A stretch of 64,000 nucleotides of DNA from Dehalococcoidia bacterium (GCA_965261605.1 OZ253466.1:336724-400723), one strand, 5' to 3'; positions 226-43,623 are shown, counted from the stretch's first letter. Numbers and translations are program-made. Notes: a model not told the origin generated them from the sequence alone.

Positions 226-479
226 CACAGGTAGAATGACCGGGCGGTAATAGGCAGCCGCTTGAATTCCTGGTCGTCCTGCGGGATTTCAAGAAGCAGT
301 TCCCCCAGAGTCGGAGCGTCGGACCTCTCTAGGCGGCAGAGTCGTTCGTACTCCTCCGCCGCCAGCACGACCACGACGGGCTGTCCCCGGCGAGTAACGC
401 GCTGTGGTTCACCGGCTAGCGCGGCATTGACCAGGGCGCTGAACTTGTTCTTCGCATCTTGTAGAGGCCACTCCGCCAT
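225..479 (-). CDS. Type II antitoxin, Phd/YefM family
   Basis: The 84-aa ORF MAEWPLQDAKNKFSALVNAALAGEPQRVTRRGQPVVVVLAAEEYERL has the Phd/YefM N-terminal pattern. It sits directly upstream of, and overlaps, a PIN toxin gene. Confidence 0.75.
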   Translation of the reverse strand: MAEWPLQDAKNKFSALVNAALAGEPQRVTRRGQPVVVVLAAEEYERLCRLERSDAPTLGELLLEIPQDDQEFKRLPITARSFYL

Positions 480-489
480 GACAAACTCC

Positions 490-514
490 GGCTAGATGTT
501 CTGGCTAGATTATA
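490..514 (-). promoter_or_regulatory. Candidate vapBC promoter/operator
   Basis: A minus-strand TATAAT (plus 509-514) overlaps the second of two GGCTAGAT direct repeats (490-497 and 503-510, 13-nt period). A GGAG lies 7 nt before the antitoxin ATG. Confidence 0.35.
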
Positions 515-677
515 CGGTAACTCGTGTCTGATTGTCACTACCGGAAAGCTGCCCAACGCCGACGACAGTTATCCCGAGTCCGGTTTCGGAATACGTTTTG
601 AAAATGGAACCAAAAACCCAGCAATTAGTCCACCTTCCTGTTATCATAGGATGTCTTAATATGTGAGGAGATTAGAT

Positions 678-2516
678 TTGACTGACTGCCAAAACAACGC
701 CATTCGCAACCTGGCCATCATTGCCCACGTCGACCACGGCAAGACCACTCTGGTCGACGCTTTGTTGAAACAAGGCCAGGTCTTTCGGGACCACCAACAG
801 GTGGGCGCTTTGATTATGGACACCAACCCTCTGGAACGAGAGCGCGGCATTACGATCCTGGCCAAGAACGCCTCGGTCTCCTACGGCGGTGTCCGGATCA
901 ACATTATCGACACGCCGGGCCACGCCGATTTCAGCGGCGAGGTGGAACGTGTCATGAATATGGCCGATGGCTGCCTGCTGTTGGTGGACGCCGTTGACGG
1001 CCCCATGCCCCAGACTACCTACGTGTTGCGCCAAGCCCTCCAGCAGAACGTTAGACCAATTGTGGTCATCAACAAGATCGACCGCCCTGAGGCCCGCGTG
1101 ACTGAGGTGGTCGCGATGGTCCAGGACCTGTTCCTGAACGTGGTTACGAGGGATGACCAACTGGATTATCCGGTGCTTTACACCTCGGCCCGCCAGGGCT
1201 GCGCCACCACGGACCCGAACGTGCCAGGGGTGGATATGCAGCCTCTTTTCCAGGCGATATTGGACTCGGTGCCGCCGCCAACCGGCGACCCCGGCGCACC
1301 GCTGCAAATGCTGGTGGCGGCCTTGGACTACGACAACTATATGGGCCAAGTGTCCGTGGGCCGCATCTCCAATGGCACGCTCCGGCTACGGGATGCCGTG
1401 GCTCTGCTGGGCCGCGACGGCCAGGCAACCACCCACAACCTTGAGCGCATCTTCGTGTTCCGCGGTATGGAGCGAGTTGAAACACCCGAAGCCCACGCCG
1501 GGGACATCGTGGCTGTGACTGGCCCTGAAGACGTGTCCATCGGCGACACCATTGCTTCGCCGGAATGCCCTGAGGCCCTGCCGACTATCGACATCAACGA
1601 ACCCACGGTGCGCATGACCTTCGGCGTGAGCAATTCTCCATTCATGGGGCGGGAGGGTGACCATTGCACTTCCCGCAATCTTCACGAACGGCTGGTTAGA
1701 GAACTGCGGACCAACGTCAGCCTGCGAGTGGATCCCACCCCCAGCGCGGACGTGTTCGTAGTCGCAGGACGGGGTGAGTTGCACCTGTCCATTCTGGTCG
1801 AGACAATGCGCCGTGAACAATTCGAGTTTCAGGTGTCCCGTCCCACACCCGTCACCAAGGTGATCGACGGCAAAGTACACGAGCCCTACGAAATTCTGAA
1901 TATCAGTACTCATGAGGAGTATGTGGGTGTGCTGACCGAGTACCTCTCTGCCCATTTGGCTCAGCTCCGGGACATGCGGTACGACGAGAACGGTTACGTC
2001 CACATGGAGTACAAGATACCTACCCGGGGACTGATAGGATTCAACGCCTTCTTTCTTCGGACCACCCGGGGCGATGGAGTGAAGAGCAGCTTCTTCACCT
2101 CCTACGAGCCTATGGAAGGTGAAATCAGGTCCCAGCGCGACGGTTCACTCGTGGCGTCCGAGGGCGGCGTGGCTGTCACTTACGGCTTGCTCAACGCACA
2201 AGGTCGGGGCGACACCTTCATCGATCCAGGCATTATGGTCTATGCAGGGATGATTGTCGGCTCCCACCGCCGCGAGGGCGACATTGAGATCAACGTCTGC
2301 AAGGAAAAGAAGCTGACCAACATGCGGTCGTCGACGTCTGAAGTGACCAAGCGCCTCAACGCCACTGTGAGGATGAGCCTGGAGGAGGCCCTGTCGTTCA
2401 TCTCTGACGATGAACTGCTGGAAGTCACACCCCTGAATCTTCGTCTTCGCAAGGCGGAACTCTCTGCCTTGGACCGTAAGCGTAAACGCCGAGACGGAGT
2501 CCGAAGCCGGGATTAA
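678..2516 (+). CDS. typA: Translational GTPase TypA/BipA
   Basis: GTPase motifs [21 protein letters not shown] and NKIDR are present, and the protein has full-length BipA-like architecture. I moved the start to the TTG at 678, 7 nt after GAGGAG; the ORF track starts at the GTG at 663. Confidence 0.9.
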
Positions 2517-9235: not shown

Positions 9236-10159
9236 TCACCCCCCTTCCTTCAGAACGCGTTTGAGACCCTCAGGCATAGCTCGAAGGGTCGGGCCGGTCC
9301 AGATAGCCAGTACGCCCAGGGTGGTGATATAGGGCAACATCTGAAGATAAAACGGTGATACCGGCGCATCAACGGTCTGGAGCTGCAACTCCAGGCCAAT
9401 GGCTGCGCCGAACAGAAGCGCTCCGGCCATGGCTCGGAGCGGCGTCCACATGCCAAAAATCACCAGCGCCACAGCTATGAATCCCCTACCGGCCGTCATC
9501 CCTTCGGACCAGGACTGTGTAAAGGCCAGGGAAAGCTGAGCGCCCCCTATGCCTGCAAGGATTCCACCCATAGCAATGGCTGCATATTGCACTACCGCCG
9601 TATTTCGCCCAGCCGCATATGCTACCTCCACGCTCTCTCCCACTGCTCTAAGACTCAGACCCCAACGCGATCGGAAGAGCACAAACCACAGCACTGGCCC
9701 CAGGGCATAGGCAATGTAGGCAAGTATATCCTGGTGAAAGAGCGCCTCACCGATGATGGGTATCCGGGAGAGGAGCGGAATGGATATCTGGTCGAGTCCG
9801 TCTATGCTGACTCCTACATACGATCGCCCAGCCCAAGACGTAATCCCAGCTCCAAGCATGGTTATAGCCAGCCCGGTAGCCAACTGATTAGCTCTACGGT
9901 TGATCACCATAAACGCGAACAAAAGGCTCAGACTGCCACCTGCCAGTGCCCCGGACAGCACCCCAACTGCTTCGCTCCCGGTCTCAGCCGCTGCGATGAA
10001 GCCGAAGCATGCACCCATGAGCATTGCTCCCTCAACCCCAAGGTTGATCTTGCCCGAACGCTCGGTTATGACCTCTCCGTATGTGGCATACATCACCGAG
10101 ATACCCGGACCAACCGCGCCGGTGAGCACTCCTTTGATGACAAGCCAGAAGGTGTTCAA
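9236..10159 (-). CDS. ABC transporter permease (BMP/nucleoside-sugar type)
   Basis: This is a polytopic membrane protein whose ends overlap the neighbouring permease and SBP genes by 4 nt. Confidence 0.85.
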   Translation of the reverse strand: MNTFWLVIKGVLTGAVGPGISVMYATYGEVITERSGKINLGVEGAMLMGACFGFIAAAETGSEAVGVLSGALAGGSLSLLFAFMVINRRANQLATGLAITMLGAGITSWAGRSYVGVSIDGLDQISIPLLSRIPIIGEALFHQDILAYIAYALGPVLWFVLFRSRWGLSLRAVGESVEVAYAAGRNTAVVQYAAIAMGGILAGIGGAQLSLAFTQSWSEGMTAGRGFIAVALVIFGMWTPLRAMAGALLFGAAIGLELQLQTVDAPVSPFYLQMLPYITTLGVLAIWTGPTLRAMPEGLKRVLKEGG

Positions 10160-11214
10160 CGGCTGGTCACCGCGCGATGACCGAACCCCAGGACCATAAA
10201 GAGGATCAACGCAATGAGAATATTGGAGGCTCCGGAGGGGACGTCCGCACTGAACTGAAGCAGGTCTCCACCAACCACCACGAGCGCCAGCAAGAAACCG
10301 GCGCCAATTATAGCGAGGGGGTTATGTCGAGCCAACCAGCTCGCCAAGAAACCCAGGAACCCAAGATTGTTGGATATCTCAGGCCGCAGGTGATGCTGCA
10401 CACCGGCAACCTCTATCATACCTGCAACCCCGGCTATGCCACCGCCTGCCAGCATCGCTACCAGCAGGTATCGGCCCACGGGTATTCCCCTCCTCTGTGC
10501 TGCATCAGGGTTACCGCCAATGGCCCGGATATTGTACCCCCAGCGTGTCTTGGCAAACACAAAGTACAGGACAAAGACGGCAATGACCGGCAGTACGAAT
10601 CCCCAGTGGAACCGTGTGCCGCCAATTGCCGGAAGGATCGCACTGGGGCTGAAGTTGGCGGTGTATGGGTAGCCGAATCCGTCCGGGTTCTTCCACGGGC
10701 CGAACACAAATACGTTGACAAGCAATATCGCAACAAAGTTAAGCAGCAGCGTTGAAATGACCTCGTTAACATTGCGCCAGTATCGGAGTAACATCGCCAC
10801 GCCGGCCCAGGCCGACCCACCGACAAAACCCGCAAGCACCATGAACGGGATTGTTATAAACAGAGGCCCGCCGGACGCGTAGAGCGCCACCCCAGTCGCG
10901 AGCCACGCACCAAAGTGAAGCTGGCCTTCGCCGCCGACGTTTATCAGACCCACACGCGCAGGAAGCGCGGTGGCAAGGCCCGCAAGCACGAAAGGGATCA
11001 TCCGGACGCCAATCTCACCCAATCCGCTCTTGCTCCCAAGGGTGCCGTTATAAACCTTGCTGTAGGCGTCAAGGACATCGCGTCCCATAAGCGCAAGGAA
11101 CAGGCCAAAGAGAGCAATGGCAACAAGAATCAGCCCAATGTTACGGGCCAACACAGGTAGGACGCCCCCACTGTTGAACCAGGACATTGGAGAGAGGAAA
11201 ATGTGCTGCGTCAT
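10156..11214 (-). CDS. ABC transporter permease (BMP/nucleoside-sugar type)
   Basis: This is a polytopic membrane protein lying between the ATPase and the second permease in one operon. Confidence 0.85.
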   Translation of the reverse strand: MTQHIFLSPMSWFNSGGVLPVLARNIGLILVAIALFGLFLALMGRDVLDAYSKVYNGTLGSKSGLGEIGVRMIPFVLAGLATALPARVGLINVGGEGQLHFGAWLATGVALYASGGPLFITIPFMVLAGFVGGSAWAGVAMLLRYWRNVNEVISTLLLNFVAILLVNVFVFGPWKNPDGFGYPYTANFSPSAILPAIGGTRFHWGFVLPVIAVFVLYFVFAKTRWGYNIRAIGGNPDAAQRRGIPVGRYLLVAMLAGGGIAGVAGMIEVAGVQHHLRPEISNNLGFLGFLASWLARHNPLAIIGAGFLLALVVVGGDLLQFSADVPSGASNILIALILFMVLGFGHRAVTSR

Positions 11215-11216
11215 TC

Positions 11217-12863
11217 CTAGTCCAGGTGTCCGGTCATCAACATGCCTACCTGGTGCGCAGAGGTATCAGCCGGGCGGGAATGACCAACCACCTCCCCACG
11301 ATGCATGACCATAAGCCTGTCACTAATAGCGAATAGCTCATCCAGGTCCTCAGATATTAGGACCGTTGCGGATCCGGCCTCCCTTGCCTTTAAGAGAAGA
11401 GCGCGGGTTATTTCCGCAGTCTTCACATCCAGACCGCGTGTTGGGTAATACGCAACCAGGACCCGCGGATCTCGAGTTAGCTCCCTATTGAGCACTACAC
11501 GCTGCATATTCCCACCGGAAAGTGTACCGACCTCCAGGCCGGGCTCCGGCATGGTCATTGGGAAGGCGGAAAACGAAGCATCAATCCGTTCCCGAATGGC
11601 CCCCCAATCCAGGAAGACATTCTGGTTTGCAAAGCTGTGAATCTCTCCCAACACCATGTTCTCTTCCACCCGCATATCCGGCACAAGCGCCATTCCAATA
11701 GCGTCTTCCGGAATATATCCAACGCCCGCGTTAAGGATGGCGGAAACGGACCATCCTTCCACATTCCTGCCATGTAGTATCACAGACCCAGACTGCTTGC
11801 GATGCAGGCCCAAGAGAACTTCCCCAATCTTCTCCTGGCCATTACCAGACACTCCCGCGATGCCCAGAATCTCACCAGGACTTACACGAAAACTAAATTG
11901 CTTGAGGCTAACTCCCTGATCCCCAGAAGGTGTAGTAACGTTATTGAACTCCAGCGCAATCTGAGTTGCCACCTTCTCAGCTCGGTTATCCTCAACACGC
12001 ACAGCTTGTGGTGGAGCGCTGCCTATCATCATGGTTACCAACTCTGCAGTTGTTGTCTCCTTCGGTGAAACAGTGCCCACCACCGCTCCATGTCTCAGGA
12101 CGGTGATTCTGTCTGCCGTGGCCATTACCTCTCGAAGCTTATGAGTTATAAAGAGGATTGCGTATCCGTCCGCCTTCAGCTCATCGAAAACCTTGAACAG
12201 CCCTTCAACCTCATGGGGCGCGAGGACGCTGGTAGGCTCATCGCAAATAAGCAGACGAGCATTCGCAATAATGAGTTTGATAAACTCCACCTTCTGTCGC
12301 TGGCCCATTGACAGAGATCCAACTCTTGCGCTTGGGTCAACCTCTAATGCGTACCTATCGGAAACCTCTTGTATCCGTGCCGAGAGAGTCTTGTGGTTCA
12401 GCACCATCCCCTGGTCCGGCCAGAATAGCGCTACGTTCTCCACCACAGTCATGGCAGGTACTAGAGTGAAGTTCTGGAACACCATGCCTACTCCTGCGCG
12501 TATGCTATCCTGAGGTGAACGGAACCTGGTCTCCTTACCATTCATTCGGATCGTGCCCGCGTCAGGCTGGTAGTACCCGTAGATGATTTTCATCAAGGTG
12601 CTTTTGCCGGCCCCGTTCTCTCCCAGTATGGCATGCACCTCTCCGTGTTTGAGTTCCAGATCAATGGCATCGTTAGCCATCACACCAGGAAAGCGCTTGG
12701 TGATGCCCTGCAGAGATAGCAGCGGCACGGTTGCCACTTCTGCCTCCTCACTGGCACGGGGTAAAGAAACATCCTCAATGATCTGAGAGTCAGATACTAG
12801 AGGAAGGTCAAGTTCATCGACAATGCGCTTGTTGCGCCACGGGACGTTAATCATAGCTTGCAT
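11217..12863 (-). CDS. ABC transporter ATP-binding protein (duplicated ATPase)
   Basis: It has two nucleotide-binding domains: Walker A GENGAGKST and GVSGNGQ, and signatures LSMGQRQ and LSGGNMQ. Confidence 0.9.
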   Translation of the reverse strand: MQAMINVPWRNKRIVDELDLPLVSDSQIIEDVSLPRASEEAEVATVPLLSLQGITKRFPGVMANDAIDLELKHGEVHAILGENGAGKSTLMKIIYGYYQPDAGTIRMNGKETRFRSPQDSIRAGVGMVFQNFTLVPAMTVVENVALFWPDQGMVLNHKTLSARIQEVSDRYALEVDPSARVGSLSMGQRQKVEFIKLIIANARLLICDEPTSVLAPHEVEGLFKVFDELKADGYAILFITHKLREVMATADRITVLRHGAVVGTVSPKETTTAELVTMMIGSAPPQAVRVEDNRAEKVATQIALEFNNVTTPSGDQGVSLKQFSFRVSPGEILGIAGVSGNGQEKIGEVLLGLHRKQSGSVILHGRNVEGWSVSAILNAGVGYIPEDAIGMALVPDMRVEENMVLGEIHSFANQNVFLDWGAIRERIDASFSAFPMTMPEPGLEVGTLSGGNMQRVVLNRELTRDPRVLVAYYPTRGLDVKTAEITRALLLKAREAGSATVLISEDLDELFAISDRLMVMHRGEVVGHSRPADTSAHQVGMLMTGHLD

Positions 12864-17685: not shown

Positions 17686-17743
17686 CCGCTGAAGGGCAGC
17701 AATCGCGATCTGTCGGAGGGCCCGCCTACAGCACCAGCCTGAA

Positions 17744-17786
17744 CCTCAACATGAAGGTTCTTGATTTTCTCCAGTTTGGTGGGCCA
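17744..17786. repeat. Direct repeat copy A (matches the tRNA-Ile 3' end plus its downstream flank)
   Basis: 39 of 43 nt are identical to 19803-19845, and weaker similarity extends to about 17715. The last 10 nt (tggtgggcca) equal the acceptor 3' strand plus CCA of tRNA-Ile. Confidence 0.8.
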
Positions 17787-17951
17787 CCCACCACTGCATC
17801 TCTGTTCTGGATCGACACTAGGCGAGAAAAACACGGAAATCACCCTAGAGGGATTCTTGGTAGTCTTGGGTGAGGTCACAAAGCAATTGGAATCGGTGGA
17901 ACCGCCAGAAGAAGGCTAGGGGCCGCTCATCGAAGGCGGCTGCAACCATCG

Positions 17952-19481
17952 TCATTGGCGGGCTCCTGTGCGCACAGAACATGTCAAGAAATGTTGGTTC
18001 TCCGAACACACCCACTCCTCGTTGGAGGCGGGTGACAGCGTTGTTGCAGGTGAGGGCACATGTGTAGTCAGAGGCAGCTCCAGTCTCTCCAGATTCGCGG
18101 GATCTGTGAACACCGAACTATCTATTTCCGTCAGCGGATTGCTGTGGAGACTGAGGGTATCGAGACCCGTGAGTTCGCCGAACACACCCTCCTCCAACGA
18201 GGTTAGCTCGTTGATGCTCAGATCAAGCGATGTGAGCGAAGAAAGCCCTCGGAACACGCCTGCCTCCAGCGACGCCAACTCATTGTCGCTGAGATTAAGC
18301 GATGTGAGTGAGGAGAGTCCGTCAAATGCACCCACTTCCAGGGTTGTTAACCGATTGCGATACAGGTTGAGTTCCTCTAGTGCGTCGAGCCCCTCGAAGA
18401 CTCCCGCTTCCAGAGTGGTCAACGGATTAGGTGGGAAATGGAAATGGCCGCTGAGGTCGAGCTGCTTCAGTGATGTGATCCCGTGGAACAACTCCCTAGG
18501 TAGGGTCGCGCCAGTGTACAGACTGAGACGCGTTACAGGAAACCCAGTGAGCACACCCGCCTCCAGTTGAGCCACCCCAGTTACCATGCTGAGTTCCCTC
18601 AGTGAAGCGAGTTTGTCGAACAACCCATTGGGCGGCGCCGTCTCCCCGGCGTAGCTCAGCTGGAGTTCCGTCAGAGAAGTTAGGCTGTCGAACACGCCCG
18701 CCTCAAGGGAGGTCAATGGGTTGCCGCTTAGATCGAGATACTTAAGCGCGCTGAGATCGTCGAATATACCGGCCTCCAGGGAGGTCAATCTGTGGCCATC
18801 TCCCAGGTAAAGCGCTCTCAACGACGTAAGTCCCGCAAACACCCCCTTTTCTAACGATGCTAGGCGATTCTTGTACGGCGACCCAAGCCAGTCTGGATAC
18901 GCTATGTAATAGATGCCTCCTAGATTGAGCGCCGTGAGCGAGGCAAGGCCGTCGAACACTCCCGCTTCCAGGTAGGTGAAGCCGGCGCCACGTAGATCAA
19001 GGGTCTCCAGAGCTGTGAGACCATCGAAATCGCCTGGCTGAAAGTTGGCAGCGTTCTCTCCACCAGCAGGATGTATCTTGCCGTCAATGGTGGCCAGTTG
19101 TGCGGCAGTGACCGCCGCACAGTCATCAACTCCGTCGATCCTCTCAAGGATGGCATCGCGGACTTGCTCAGTACGATCGCAGATACCAACAGATGTATGC
19201 ACCCGAGTGGCAGCGTTCTCCTCGACTGTGGATGTAGGTGGTGGTGTAGGTGTATTGGTTGGTGTGGACGCAGCTATAGAGACCGGAGTGTGTGTTGGAG
19301 TCCTAGTAGGAACGGATTCCGATGTCGGCGTTAATGTTACCAGTGGAGTAGACGTGCTGGTCGGCTGCGTTACAGTGGTCGAAGCGGGCCCGTCATCACA
19401 TGCCGACAGAACGACGGCTAGCAGGCAAAGCAAGCCAACCCAAGCGAATCCCTGCATGGTTCTACGCGACGTAATCTGCAA
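17952..19481 (-). CDS. Secreted leucine-rich-repeat lipoprotein
   Basis: It has a lipobox LSAC after a hydrophobic signal, a Thr/Pro-rich linker, then more than 12 tandem roughly 24-aa LRR units (L..L.L..N.L..L..GVF..L). Confidence 0.8.
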   Translation of the reverse strand: MQITSRRTMQGFAWVGLLCLLAVVLSACDDGPASTTVTQPTSTSTPLVTLTPTSESVPTRTPTHTPVSIAASTPTNTPTPPPTSTVEENAATRVHTSVGICDRTEQVRDAILERIDGVDDCAAVTAAQLATIDGKIHPAGGENAANFQPGDFDGLTALETLDLRGAGFTYLEAGVFDGLASLTALNLGGIYYIAYPDWLGSPYKNRLASLEKGVFAGLTSLRALYLGDGHRLTSLEAGIFDDLSALKYLDLSGNPLTSLEAGVFDSLTSLTELQLSYAGETAPPNGLFDKLASLRELSMVTGVAQLEAGVLTGFPVTRLSLYTGATLPRELFHGITSLKQLDLSGHFHFPPNPLTTLEAGVFEGLDALEELNLYRNRLTTLEVGAFDGLSSLTSLNLSDNELASLEAGVFRGLSSLTSLDLSINELTSLEEGVFGELTGLDTLSLHSNPLTEIDSSVFTDPANLERLELPLTTHVPSPATTLSPASNEEWVCSENQHFLTCSVRTGARQ

Positions 19482-19667
19482 TCTCTCCAGCCCAATGATG
19501 TGGGCTCTATATTACTACATTACTACGTCCCCCATTTGACGTGTCGCTTAAGCAATCGCACACGTCTCGGTCCACATCCAAGTTACGCAGGTGTTCACCG
19601 TATCCTCCGCGTCGATGGAGGTTGCCACCGTGCTGGTTACTAGGCATGCGGCGATCAGGCAAAAGCA

Positions 19668-19707
19668 AAGAGGGCCCGCTGTGAAACAGTGGGCCCATCC
19701 CGCAACT
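19668..19707 (-). terminator. Rho-independent terminator downstream of tRNA-Ile
   Basis: On the minus strand, the stem GGGCCCACTGT-ttc-ACAGCGGGCCC (plus 19683-19707) is followed by TCTTTGCTTTTGCC. Confidence 0.5.
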
Positions 19708-19802
19708 CCGTTGTTTCTCGGTGGGAATCCCACTCGGTCCTCGGCTGGCATCGCTGCCTAGCTCACCGAGGTCAGTGGTCTACCTTATAGGACCAGAACG
19801 AA

Positions 19803-19845
19803 CGTCAACGTGAAGGTTCTTGATTTTGTCCAGCTTGGTGGGCCA
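19803..19845. repeat. Direct repeat copy B (overlaps the tRNA-Ile 3' end)
   Basis: This is the partner of 17744-17786. Positions 19836-19845 lie inside the tRNA gene. Confidence 0.8.
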
Positions 19846-19912
19846 GCGTGGATTCGAACCACGGACCTCAGTCTTATCAGGACTGCGCTCTAACCACCTG
19901 AGCTACTGGCCC
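19836..19912 (-). tRNA. tRNA-Ile (anticodon GAU), CCA encoded
   Basis: The minus-strand sequence GGGCCAGTAGCTCAGGTGGTTAGAGCGCAGTCCTGATAAGACTGAGGTCCGTGGTTCGAATCCACGCTGGCCCACCA folds into a canonical cloverleaf. The anticodon loop is CTGATAA. Confidence 0.95.
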
Positions 19913-23689: not shown

Positions 23690-23795
23690 ACCACCCCTGC
23701 GAAACTTGTCCTCGTGGAAACGGGGAGCAGGGGTCTACTGGGCATTATCAGAGGTGTCCTGGATTCCTGCTTCCGCAGGAATAACGGATAAGAAC
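23690..23795. repeat. Diverged core-only copy of the double-hairpin repeat (opposite orientation)
   Basis: It contains ACCCCTGCG...GCAGGGGTCTA and TGGATTCCTGC-ttcc-GCAGGAAT in the order expected for the reverse complement of the MITE at 36739-36919. I could not find matching termini. Confidence 0.35.
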
Positions 23796-36725: not shown

Positions 36726-36738
36726 GAGCTTGGATTGG

Positions 36739-36919
36739 GTATTCCCTATGCGTGTTGGTATTGCCAACTCCGCTAGGATAATGCGCCTTTCTTCATCCAT
36801 TCCTGCGAAGGCAGGAATCCACGACCCCTGTAATTGTGGAGGATAGACCCCTGCCTCCGCAGGGGTGGTTTGTTGCTTGGGTGGTGTTATTTGCTATTAC
36901 CAACACACCCCGGGAATAC
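36739..36919. mobile_element. MITE-like element, intact copy (181 bp)
   Basis: The termini GTATTCCCTATGCGTGTTGGTATTGC / GCTATTACCAACACACCCCGGGAATAC are inverted repeats. The element is flanked by a 10-bp direct repeat CTTGGATTGG (36729-36738 and 36920-36929). Inside are two hairpins, ATTCCTGC-gaag-GCAGGAAT and ACCCCTGC-ctcc-GCAGGGGT. Confidence 0.75.
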
Positions 36920-36947
36920 CTTGGATTGGGCGGCGGCGGCGCGTCCA

Positions 36948-41740: not shown

Positions 41741-41876
41741 AGTCACCTCCTTCTGGAGTACCCGACCCATTCATCGGTATTCTCTATACGCGTTGGTTTT
41801 GCCAACTCCGCTGGGATAATGCGCCTTTCTTCAACCATTCCTGCGGAGGCAGGAATCCACGACCCCTGTAATTGTG

Positions 41877-43387
41877 GGGACTTATATCGAAAACTACACA
41901 AGGCGTAGCTAATCCCTGTCCTTACTTCCTCCTAGTTGTACTCTCAAATCGCATTATCTCCACTGTACCCTCATCTGCTACAGCCGAAATGTAGCCATAA
42001 TCATTTTCACAACTTCTAATGCGGATGAGCATCAGGCGGAATGCCGCAGCGCAGCACCCCAGGGTCTGAATCTAGCGGATACATATCGTGATTATGCCGC
42101 TTTCCACCGTGATTATGCGACTGTTCACCACATGGCGAAGTAGTCGGCTCAGGGGTAGCTATTGGAGTCGGCGTTGGCGTTGGCGTAGCTATTGGCGTTG
42201 GCGTAGCTATTGGCGTCGGCGTTGACGTAGCTATTGGCGTCGGCTCAATAGTAGCTATTGGAATCGGCTCAATTTGTGTCGCAGCCCCCCCCGGAGTAGT
42301 GAAAGTTGTGTGGTTATCAGCTTGATACCAGCCGTTATTTCCCTCCTCGTTTATCGCTATAATTTGCATTTCGTACATTGTCCCGCTTTGCAATCCGTGT
42401 GGTGATTCTGGTGTGCGACGTACAACATACCGATGTCCGGTTATCCCGCCTACATTGCGAGTATTCAGTCTAATCTCCGCCTCACAACTATAGGTAGAGC
42501 TAGCTGAAACATCAATCTTTGTCCAATCATCTGAGCTATTATCTTCCCGGTAACGAAGCATGTATCTAGTGGTTTTGGGCCTTGCCGTGTCGCCGCGAGG
42601 TGATGTCAGCAGTGGGTCAATTAGCCAATCCCAAGGAGACGCCCACTCAAAAACCACCTCATACTCTGAGTTTCCAGATGCTACATGATCGATGGCGGCG
42701 GTTGGCTTATGCCAAAATACATCGGGAGTGTCGGCTGCGTCGACAATGTTCATGGTTTTGGTATATGTGTTGCAGGCATCATTGTCATCACATATCTTAA
42801 ACGTCACTTGATGAGAGGTCGCAGTCTCGTAATCCGTTGTACGATGAACTACAAACCTCAACCCATAACCGCGATTTAATGTACTTATGGGTCTACCCGA
42901 CGCTGCGGCGTTTTGCGGGTCATCAAAGCTAGGTTGCAACATCCCGTCCCAGGGGGGCACTATGGTAACGGTCATCGGGTCGTTTTCATTATCCTTAGCT
43001 GTCAGCGAACATAATTCAACGTTTCCCCCAATGCGATGCTCTGGCGCTGCCGACACAAAAGGCGCGGTGCGCCGAATAAACTCAAAGCCTGGCACTGCGT
43101 CACAGGCCCCTTCTGCCAAATATCTATGGTCTTTCATTGGAACTAGATAGGGAGCGGTGTTGGCCGCAGCCCCGTCATCAGCGAATACGACGGCATTAAA
43201 TAACAGCATACTTAGCCCTATCAATATAACCACCGCCACCGCTGATCCCCCAATTTGCATCAGTTGTCTCATATCCGTTCTCCTTCTTAACTCTCAATGT
43301 TCAATAAAATTGCGCCATATTTCACGCCGTCAGCGTACTGCTTAACATCTACTTGCTCCTGCTTGTGTAGTTTTCGATATAAATCCC
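41877..43387. mobile_element. Non-autonomous passenger-carrying transposable element (1511 bp; MIC-like)
   Basis: The 26-bp terminal inverted repeats GGGACTTATATCGAAAACTACACAAG (41877-41902) and CTTGTGTAGTTTTCGATATAAATCCC (43362-43387) match at 25 of 26 positions. The 8-bp target duplication TAATTGTG lies at 41869-41876 and 43388-43395. The same site is single-copy and unoccupied in the intact MITE (36831-36838). There is no transposase ORF inside. Confidence 0.8.
42016..43272 (-). CDS. Secreted protein with FN3-like domain, PTPIAT tandem repeats and a Cys/His-rich tail
   Basis: It has an N-terminal hydrophobic signal (AVAVVILIGLSMLLFNAVVFA) and an FN3-like block (...YMLRYRE...W...GLQSGTMYEMQIIAINEEGNNGW). 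About six PTPIAT-type repeats follow, then a C-terminal CGEQSHNHGGKRHNHD...CGIPPDAHPH. AAGGAGAA lies before the ATG. Confidence 0.75.
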   Translation of the reverse strand: MRQLMQIGGSAVAVVILIGLSMLLFNAVVFADDGAAANTAPYLVPMKDHRYLAEGACDAVPGFEFIRRTAPFVSAAPEHRIGGNVELCSLTAKDNENDPMTVTIVPPWDGMLQPSFDDPQNAAASGRPISTLNRGYGLRFVVHRTTDYETATSHQVTFKICDDNDACNTYTKTMNIVDAADTPDVFWHKPTAAIDHVASGNSEYEVVFEWASPWDWLIDPLLTSPRGDTARPKTTRYMLRYREDNSSDDWTKIDVSASSTYSCEAEIRLNTRNVGGITGHRYVVRRTPESPHGLQSGTMYEMQIIAINEEGNNGWYQADNHTTFTTPGGAATQIEPIPIATIEPTPIATSTPTPIATPTPIATPTPTPTPIATPEPTTSPCGEQSHNHGGKRHNHDMYPLDSDPGVLRCGIPPDAHPH

Positions 43388-43623
43388 TAATTGTGGAGGA
43401 TAGACCCCTGCCTCCGCAGGGGTGGACTGGCGCCTGGGTGGTGTGAATTACTATTGCCAACACCTATAGAGAATACCCATTCATCGGGATTTGGTCATTC
43501 AAGGTGTGTGAATGTTACACTAAACAGCCACTCTACGTCATTCAATCCCGAATACTCAGATGAGTTAAGGACAATCTTCAGTTCGGAGCCCCCGGTATCG
43601 AGCACCGGGGTTAGCTGCGGGCA

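Follow-up and report, generated by a model that had tools for sequence, protein, structure and literature searches.

A probable IS1595-derived mobile insertion cassette with a cadherin/FN3-type passenger gene, nested in a MITE of a Dehalococcoidia bacterium

Nested insertions between hsp20 and mqsA

The locus described here lies in a 64,000-nucleotide stretch of DNA (hereafter the window) from a Dehalococcoidia bacterium (GCA_965261605.1 OZ253466.1:336724-400723), in the spacer between an hsp20 gene and an mqsA-like antitoxin gene. The spacer holds a miniature inverted-repeat transposable element (MITE), which is itself interrupted by a 1511-bp cassette (41877-43387, from one terminal inverted repeat, TIR, to the other) that carries a single gene and no transposase. 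We interpret this cassette as a probable mobile insertion cassette (MIC) derived from an insertion sequence (IS) of the IS1595 family. The features of the cassette and its host repeat, including the target-site duplication (TSD), are given below in window coordinates.

36738-36920, no strand: MITE copy 1, uninterrupted, with the empty cassette site at 36831-36838
41778-41868, no strand: left half of the host MITE (copy 2), 93% identical to 36738-36839; missing at the orthologous loci of L004, L006, and L007
41869-41876, no strand: left TSD copy, 8 bp, TAATTGTG; the same octamer occurs singly at the empty site 36831-36838
41877-41902, plus strand: TIR on the 3' side of the cargo gene, GGGACTTATATCGAAAACTACACAAG; aligned with inverted repeats of an IS1595 clade
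41903-42015, minus strand: non-coding spacer downstream of the cargo gene, including 43 bp missing from the L003 copy in the alignment
42016-43272, minus strand: cargo gene, 418 aa, the sole long open reading frame (ORF) of the cassette
42155-42273, minus strand: tandem array with a unit of 18-24 nt that codes for the PT(P)IAT linker; the copies diverge most here
43273-43361, minus strand: non-coding leader with the ribosome-binding site (RBS) AAGGAG, including 49 bp missing from the L003 copy
43362-43387, minus strand: TIR on the 5' side of the cargo gene, GGGATTTATATCGAAAACTACACAAG on the minus strand (reverse complement)
43388-43395, no strand: right TSD copy, 8 bp, TAATTGTG
43396-43475, no strand: right half of the host MITE (copy 2); missing at the orthologous loci of L004, L006, and L007

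The two 26-bp TIRs agree at 25 of 26 positions, and when up to three mismatches were allowed no further match was found in the 64-kb window and none across 100 shuffles. The cassette ends follow the pattern GGGAYTTATAT…AAAACTACAC. The base that follows the empty site is a G, so that the sequence fits a 9-bp duplication just as well, the element in that case starting GGACTT. Besides the cargo gene, the cassette contains antisense frames only (62-87 aa); no transposase domain was detected in the long ORF, and tblastn of 89 IS1595-family transposases against the window returned zero matches. These results bear out a prior sequence-only reading of the locus, which had described 26-bp TIRs agreeing at 25 positions, an 8-bp duplication on both sides, and one 418-aa ORF without a transposase. 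The G+C fraction of the cassette is ~0.47-0.54, versus ~0.57-0.65 for the flanking genes. A promoter and terminator scan of the cassette leader gave nothing convincing and no promoter was identified.

The sequences flanking the cassette are the two halves of a repeat of ~183-205 bp. Relative to MITE copy 1, the two sides of copy 2 match at 93% (41776-41877) and 83% (43388-43477), and copy 1 is continuous across the site, with TAATTGTG occurring once (36831-36838); the window thus contains a filled as well as an empty site, as the sequence-only reading had proposed from an unoccupied, unduplicated site in the other MITE copy. As a single strand, MITE copy 1 folds strongly and is rich in hairpins (z = -5). 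A weak partial match to the MITE was also seen at window 23727-23782.

We compared the locus with the orthologous locus of five related genomes (L004-L008; 93-98% nucleotide identity over 12-22 kb), all of which have neither MITE nor cassette at the cassette locus. The hsp20-mqsA spacer is uninterrupted in L004, L006, and L007; in L007, …GGATGAATGGGT runs directly into CGGGTACTCC…, and the spacers of L004 and L006 differ from it by a few bases. In the window, the MITE in this spacer is bordered by duplicated CCGATGAATGGG, which makes a duplication of 8 bp if the element ends are read as GGTATTC…GAATACC and of 11-12 bp otherwise. Since the spacer is uninterrupted in the relatives, both insertions postdate the split of the lineages, the MITE having arrived first and the cassette having entered it second. 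MITE copy 1 is present in L007 (13702-13906) and missing from the same spot in L004-L006, indicating that the MITE is polymorphic too. The same nested insertion was found on an independent 15-kb contig of another assembly (L001), which speaks against an assembly artefact. The AlaRS and ClpB proteins of the window fall into 90%-identity clusters, many members of which are encoded on contigs of 0.6-2.8 Mb. Separately, the same hsp20-mqsA spacer of L005 holds an unrelated insertion of ~270 bp (L005:8700-9090), a possible partner gene for the MqsA-like antitoxin.

A second cassette copy and the family of the ends

The first protein search, run with the Pro/Thr linker included, was swamped by Pro/Thr-rich candidates (8000 scored, two hits) and gave one close relative, P0001, on a contig whose gene content is unrelated to that of the window (L003). 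This contig carries a second copy of the cassette (9874-11281) at an unrelated site, with 93% nucleotide identity to the window copy. Its layout is that of the window copy (TIR, leader, gene, trailer, TIR), with indels of 49 and 43 bp just within the TIRs. Sharing of this layout between two sites implies that the transposase-less form arose before the copies split and has been present at two or more sites. The L003 copy interrupts an HTH_17 gene and has no MITE sequence around it; excising the cassette together with one copy of the flanking duplication yields an intact 167-aa HTH_17 ORF. The sequence-only reading had made mobility depend on whether the TIR occurs anywhere else, and this contig provides the further copies. 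Elsewhere on the contig (899-4288 and 11595-19661) are genes for Prok_Ub (ubiquitin-like), Prok-E2, JAB, ThiF, MmeI/Eco57I-type restriction-modification, PIN, and PLD-SNF2 helicase proteins, i.e., the surroundings of this copy are defence-island-like.

The flanking duplications of the two copies are of very different length, namely 8 bp (or 9) in the window and a perfect 184-bp direct duplication in L003 (9690-9873 = 11282-11465). The latter is the sole mechanistically unexpected item. It could reflect a long staggered insertion, two nearby insertions followed by recombination, or a chimera of two haplotypes, the contig having ~4x coverage. Only IS1634 and IS1549 are documented to make long direct repeats of variable length (8-514 bp; PMC2266710). 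The duplication prompted us to consider IS1634/IS1549 as the parent of the cassette, a candidate that was ruled out by the end sequence and by the IS1595 transposases associated with such ends.

When phmmer was run exhaustively on the globular part of the protein, the linker removed, a third copy of the gene was recovered (P0034 on L039, a contig with 2x coverage and many frameshifts). Here the homology spans the gene only, from the RBS to 5 bp beyond the stop codon. The sequence GGGAATTATATACTTGACGATCC begins 6 bp after the cargo stop codon and is followed by an IS1595-type transposase ORF or fragment (Zn_ribbon_IS1595, 7.5e-11; DDE_Tnp_IS1595, 1.3e-7; NCBIfam transpos_IS1595, 7.5e-21). The same repeats as the end of this transposase bound L040 3936-6499, L041 235-2798, an element in L043, and a decayed one in L042 (3938-~6078). 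The complete relatives in L040, L041, and L047 have inverted repeats starting GGGAATTATATAC or GGAAATTATATAC; the L043 element is missing its left end and has the same tip at its right end (6301). In L047 (2832-5282), ORFs of unknown type lie between the inverted repeats GGGAATTATATACAATCCTACCC and GGAAATTATATACCATTCTACCC. Transposases of IS1595 type, with both the Zn ribbon and DDE_Tnp_IS1595, adjoin the related ends in L039, L040, and L047. Between their GGGAATTATATACTTGACGATCC inverted repeats, the transporter ISs of L040, L041, and L043 carry a D12-class (Dam-like) methyltransferase gene and a PDDEXK_11 nuclease-like gene; this restriction-modification-like pair on an IS occurs in three contexts, and one decayed copy of the element interrupts pfkB.

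A closer match to the cassette TIR was found in L015, where GGGACTTATATACAAAACTACACTAA, identical at 22 of 26 positions, immediately precedes an ORF that matches DDE_Tnp_IS1595 over its full length (5e-42). This locus was among 28 single matches of a relaxed TIR pattern in JGI metagenomes, about the estimated chance number; it was at first taken as a match within a coding region, and tblastn of the 89 transposases against the loci identified it as the left end of an IS1595-family IS. On a Methylocystis plasmid, the transposase gene encoding a product 47% identical to the L015 transposase, annotated by PGAP as IS1595 family, has the left end GGGACATATATAC. When the TIRs were aligned (cassette, L015, L047, L040, L039, L043, and L046), 8 of the first 11 positions were invariant and two more were at least 90% conserved, and the repeats could be ordered in a graded series, with the cassette at one end, L040 at the other, and L015, L035, and L047 between them in that order. 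This alignment places the cassette ends among the inverted repeats of a single IS1595-family clade. Members of this family have a transposase with a Zn finger and a DDE domain and usually make 8-bp TSDs (PMC8101967). The sequence-only reading had tentatively likened the ends to ISL3. No ISL3 transposase was found beside any related end examined; given that the ends fall in the IS1595-clade series (with the 22/26 match to L015) and that every transposase adjoining related ends is of the IS1595 family, we replace that suggestion by IS1595.

A further match of the relaxed pattern, L035, has an inverted TIR partner 527 bp away. These repeats delimit an element of ~530-550 bp (371-897, minus strand, on a 1.4-kb JGI contig) with ends GGGGATTTATATACAAAACTACCCT and GGGGAATTACATACAAAGTTACCCT, the arms agreeing at 21 of 26 positions; it has one ORF of ~120 aa with a hydrophobic N-terminus, no transposase, and no clear TSD, and is possibly another small cassette with this type of end. 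The 26 other matches of the relaxed pattern were dismissed as chance. So was a 21-mer match in a Cytophagales genome (among 185,579 species genomes), which lies inside a coding region and has no IS features. A 23-mer degenerate TIR had zero matches in JGI metagenomes and zero in IMG/VR, and blastn against plasmids returned low-complexity matches to the Pro/Thr repeats only, with no relatives.

The passenger protein and other repeats of the window

From its N-terminus onwards, the cargo protein is predicted to comprise a hydrophobic helix, then cadherin-like and FN3 domains, and, after a Pro/Thr linker, a conserved 40-aa tail rich in Cys and His. The helix (~aa 1-32) is predicted to be a signal peptide or membrane anchor, with a possible cleavage site between VFA and DD. 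The signal peptide, PT repeats, and His/Cys tail named in the sequence-only reading are all recovered; the FN3 domain taken by itself is weak, since it falls below threshold in Pfam (E=0.019), and a cadherin-like domain was added by phmmer. Against 1.84 billion representatives, phmmer gave 167 hits, mostly multi-repeat proteins of 1,000-6,500 aa that match many times over at two stretches of the query. Three top matches put to Pfam (a fragment of P0033, P0035, and P0039) gave strong Cadherin hits, and weak PDB matches were to protocadherin and fibronectin. Judged by these similarities, both globular parts are homologous to the repeats of giant cadherin/FN3 surface proteins. A single-sequence AlphaFold model, made with no alignment, was unusable (mean confidence score, pLDDT, of 38).

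Judging from these homologies, the product, exported or membrane-anchored, most likely serves in adhesion or binding at the cell surface, in agreement with the surface or adhesion-type cargo previously proposed. When the window and L003 copies are compared, the globular part has a ratio of nonsynonymous to synonymous substitution rates (dN/dS) of 0.34 and the tail one of 0.19, and the linker is the most diverged part. Values of ~0.3 indicate that the cargo is under moderate purifying selection. The gene is presumably expressed.

All three cargo copies have G tracts, of differing length, within or close to the signal-peptide region: 5 G in the window (43240-43250), 9 G in L003 (9955-9970), where the annotated start is out of frame, and 13 G in a second tract in L039 (1205-1222). 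This variation is either homopolymer error at low coverage or slipped-strand on/off switching.

Another set of repeats lies elsewhere in the window (17700-19900), where a 509-aa ORF on the minus strand contains imperfect repeats with a 72-nt period and 63-72% identity, and a pair of 75-nt repeats is found at 17712 and 19771. The periodicity suggests that this ORF is a gene for a leucine-rich-repeat-type protein.

Origin of the cassette and comparison with known systems

MICs are transposase-less IS derivatives that can be activated by a cognate transposase (PMC3129680). The cassette has IS-related TIRs, no transposase, an unrelated gene, and a TSD together with multiple and empty sites. It is therefore probably a MIC, a non-autonomous derivative of the IS1595 family composed of two 26-bp TIRs and one passenger gene that would be moved in trans. 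The filled and empty sites and the independent insertion in L003 uphold the core of the sequence-only reading, that of a recently inserted transposase-less MIC. In the mechanism that we favour, an IS1595-family DDE transposase encoded elsewhere in the cell would bind both cassette ends, move the cassette, and join the ends to staggered cuts in an A+T-rich target, after which gap repair would leave the 8-bp duplication. The landing site was the A+T-rich loop of the 183-205-bp MITE, itself a recent arrival between hsp20 and the mqsA-like antitoxin gene. The passenger gene would thereby have spread between genomes as a transposable unit.

Several results weigh against this interpretation. Tblastn detected no intact cognate transposase in any of the loci covered, namely the window (64 kb of a 2.8-Mb genome), the 15-kb contig with the same nested insertion, and the loci of the related genomes. 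The cassette is also rare: a search of ~15 billion proteins yielded just three copies, of which two are cassettes and one is the gene by itself, and the exact TIR has no genuine match in the 185,579 species genomes and JGI metagenomes. The relatives that tie the ends to IS1595 are themselves imperfect, in that the IS in L039 has only the outer 11 bp in common with the cassette TIR, the L015 IS has a stop codon and lost cysteines in the Zn-ribbon region of its transposase (this IS runs off the contig, its right end being unseen), and no TSD was recognisable at the two complete transporter ISs examined (L040 and L047). The 184-bp duplication in L003 is atypical for IS1595, and the function of the cargo is assigned by domain homology only.

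The principal rival would make the two copies separate products of in-situ decay, each descending from a transporter IS that once held transposase and cargo together and shed the transposase by deletion after inserting. Such ISs occur in these communities, as IS1595-clade elements with passengers were found in L040, L041, L043, and L047, and in L039 the cargo gene adjoins a fragment of an IS1595-family transposase. That transposase, however, is outside the homology block of the gene, behind a left end of its own with a different inner TIR. Moreover, the window and L003 copies have identical junctions between TIR, leader, gene, and trailer, with the 43- and 49-bp indels as the only differences in layout; independent deletions would not yield identical junctions, which makes this origin distinctly unlikely. 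Less likely still is descent from another family with GG ends and 8-9-bp duplications (ISL3, IS256, IS6, or ISKra4). Several IS families combine GG ends with TSDs of 8-9 bp, the cassette has both properties (its TSD being 8 or 9 bp), and no cognate transposase was seen in the searched loci of the same genome. Yet all transposases physically attached to such ends belong to the IS1595 family, the 22/26 match to L015 and the graded series are specific, and no ISL3, IS256, or IS6 transposase lies beside any such end examined. The last reading is that the 1.5-kb segment is ancestral and the MITE an internal deletion of it, or that the pattern of TIRs and TSD arose by chance or by misassembly. Nothing beyond the nesting itself speaks for an ancestral segment, and this reading is already refuted: the TIRs and TSD of the cassette are distinct from the MITE ends, MITE copy 1 has a single TAATTGTG, the L003 copy lies outside any MITE, the L001 contig independently has the same insertion, and the shuffles gave zero matches. 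The cassette-free MITE is accordingly the ancestral form, contrary to a possibility that the sequence-only reading had left standing.

A bolder extension of the MIC interpretation is that an IS1595-type lineage in uncultured bacteria mobilises adhesin cassettes, makes duplications of 184 bp where 8 bp is usual, and uses poly-G tracts as on/off switches; we hold this combination to be rather unlikely. If true, it would add a case of the widely spaced strand transfers so far reported for IS1634 and IS1549 only. As it stands, the locus documents transposition in nature with unusual completeness, with nested insertions, filled and empty sites in one window, and pre-insertion states in relatives. 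It suggests that a gene for a cadherin/FN3 surface protein can travel as a minimal transposable cassette, and would extend MIC-type derivatives to the IS1595 family and to an uncultured lineage. The understanding of such elements is unchanged by it; the cassette is a tidy example and not a new kind of element.

Compared with known systems, the cassette most resembles the MICs, which are exemplified by MIC231 of the Bacillus cereus group and by the MICs of Proteeae and Aeromonas that carry qnrD and qnrS2 (PMC3129680, PMC3913671, PMC5444012). In common with these, it has no transposase, TIRs of IS type with a target duplication, an unrelated passenger, and presumed movement in trans. It differs from them in having ends of IS1595 type as opposed to IS231/IS4, a cadherin/FN3 passenger as opposed to a resistance or peptidase gene, an uncultured environmental host, and, in one copy (L003), a 184-bp flanking duplication. 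With MITEs it shares the property of being a non-autonomous TIR element, and the host MITE is itself polymorphic among near-identical genomes; the cassette, at 1.5 kb and protein-coding, contrasts with these short, non-coding elements. Its very unequal flanking duplications (8 bp and 184 bp in the two copies) recall IS1634 and IS1549. The IS1634 family is characterised by ends that start with C, typical AT-rich duplications of 5-6 bp, and an IS1634-type DDE transposase (PMC2266710), whereas the cassette has GGG ends, no IS1634-type transposase, and a single long duplication in a contig of 4x coverage.

With respect to the IS1595 family itself, the likeness lies in the GG(G) ends, the position of the ends within the clade series, and the carriage of passengers by the family; the TSD agrees in the window copy (8 bp, or 9) but not in L003 (184 bp), and none was recognisable at the complete relatives L040 and L047. 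One article documents transporter ISs with passenger genes and cites the IS1595-family paper (Siguier et al. 2009) for them (PMC3129680). The IS1595 relatives recovered here carry either the methyltransferase/nuclease pair or ORFs of unknown type, and the inner half of the TIR is CGAAAACTACAC in the cassette as opposed to ACTTGACGATCC in the best-sampled relatives. The transposase that defines the family, with its Zn-ribbon and DDE_Tnp_IS1595 domains, is missing from the cassette, which is therefore best classed as a derivative of the family and not as a member IS.

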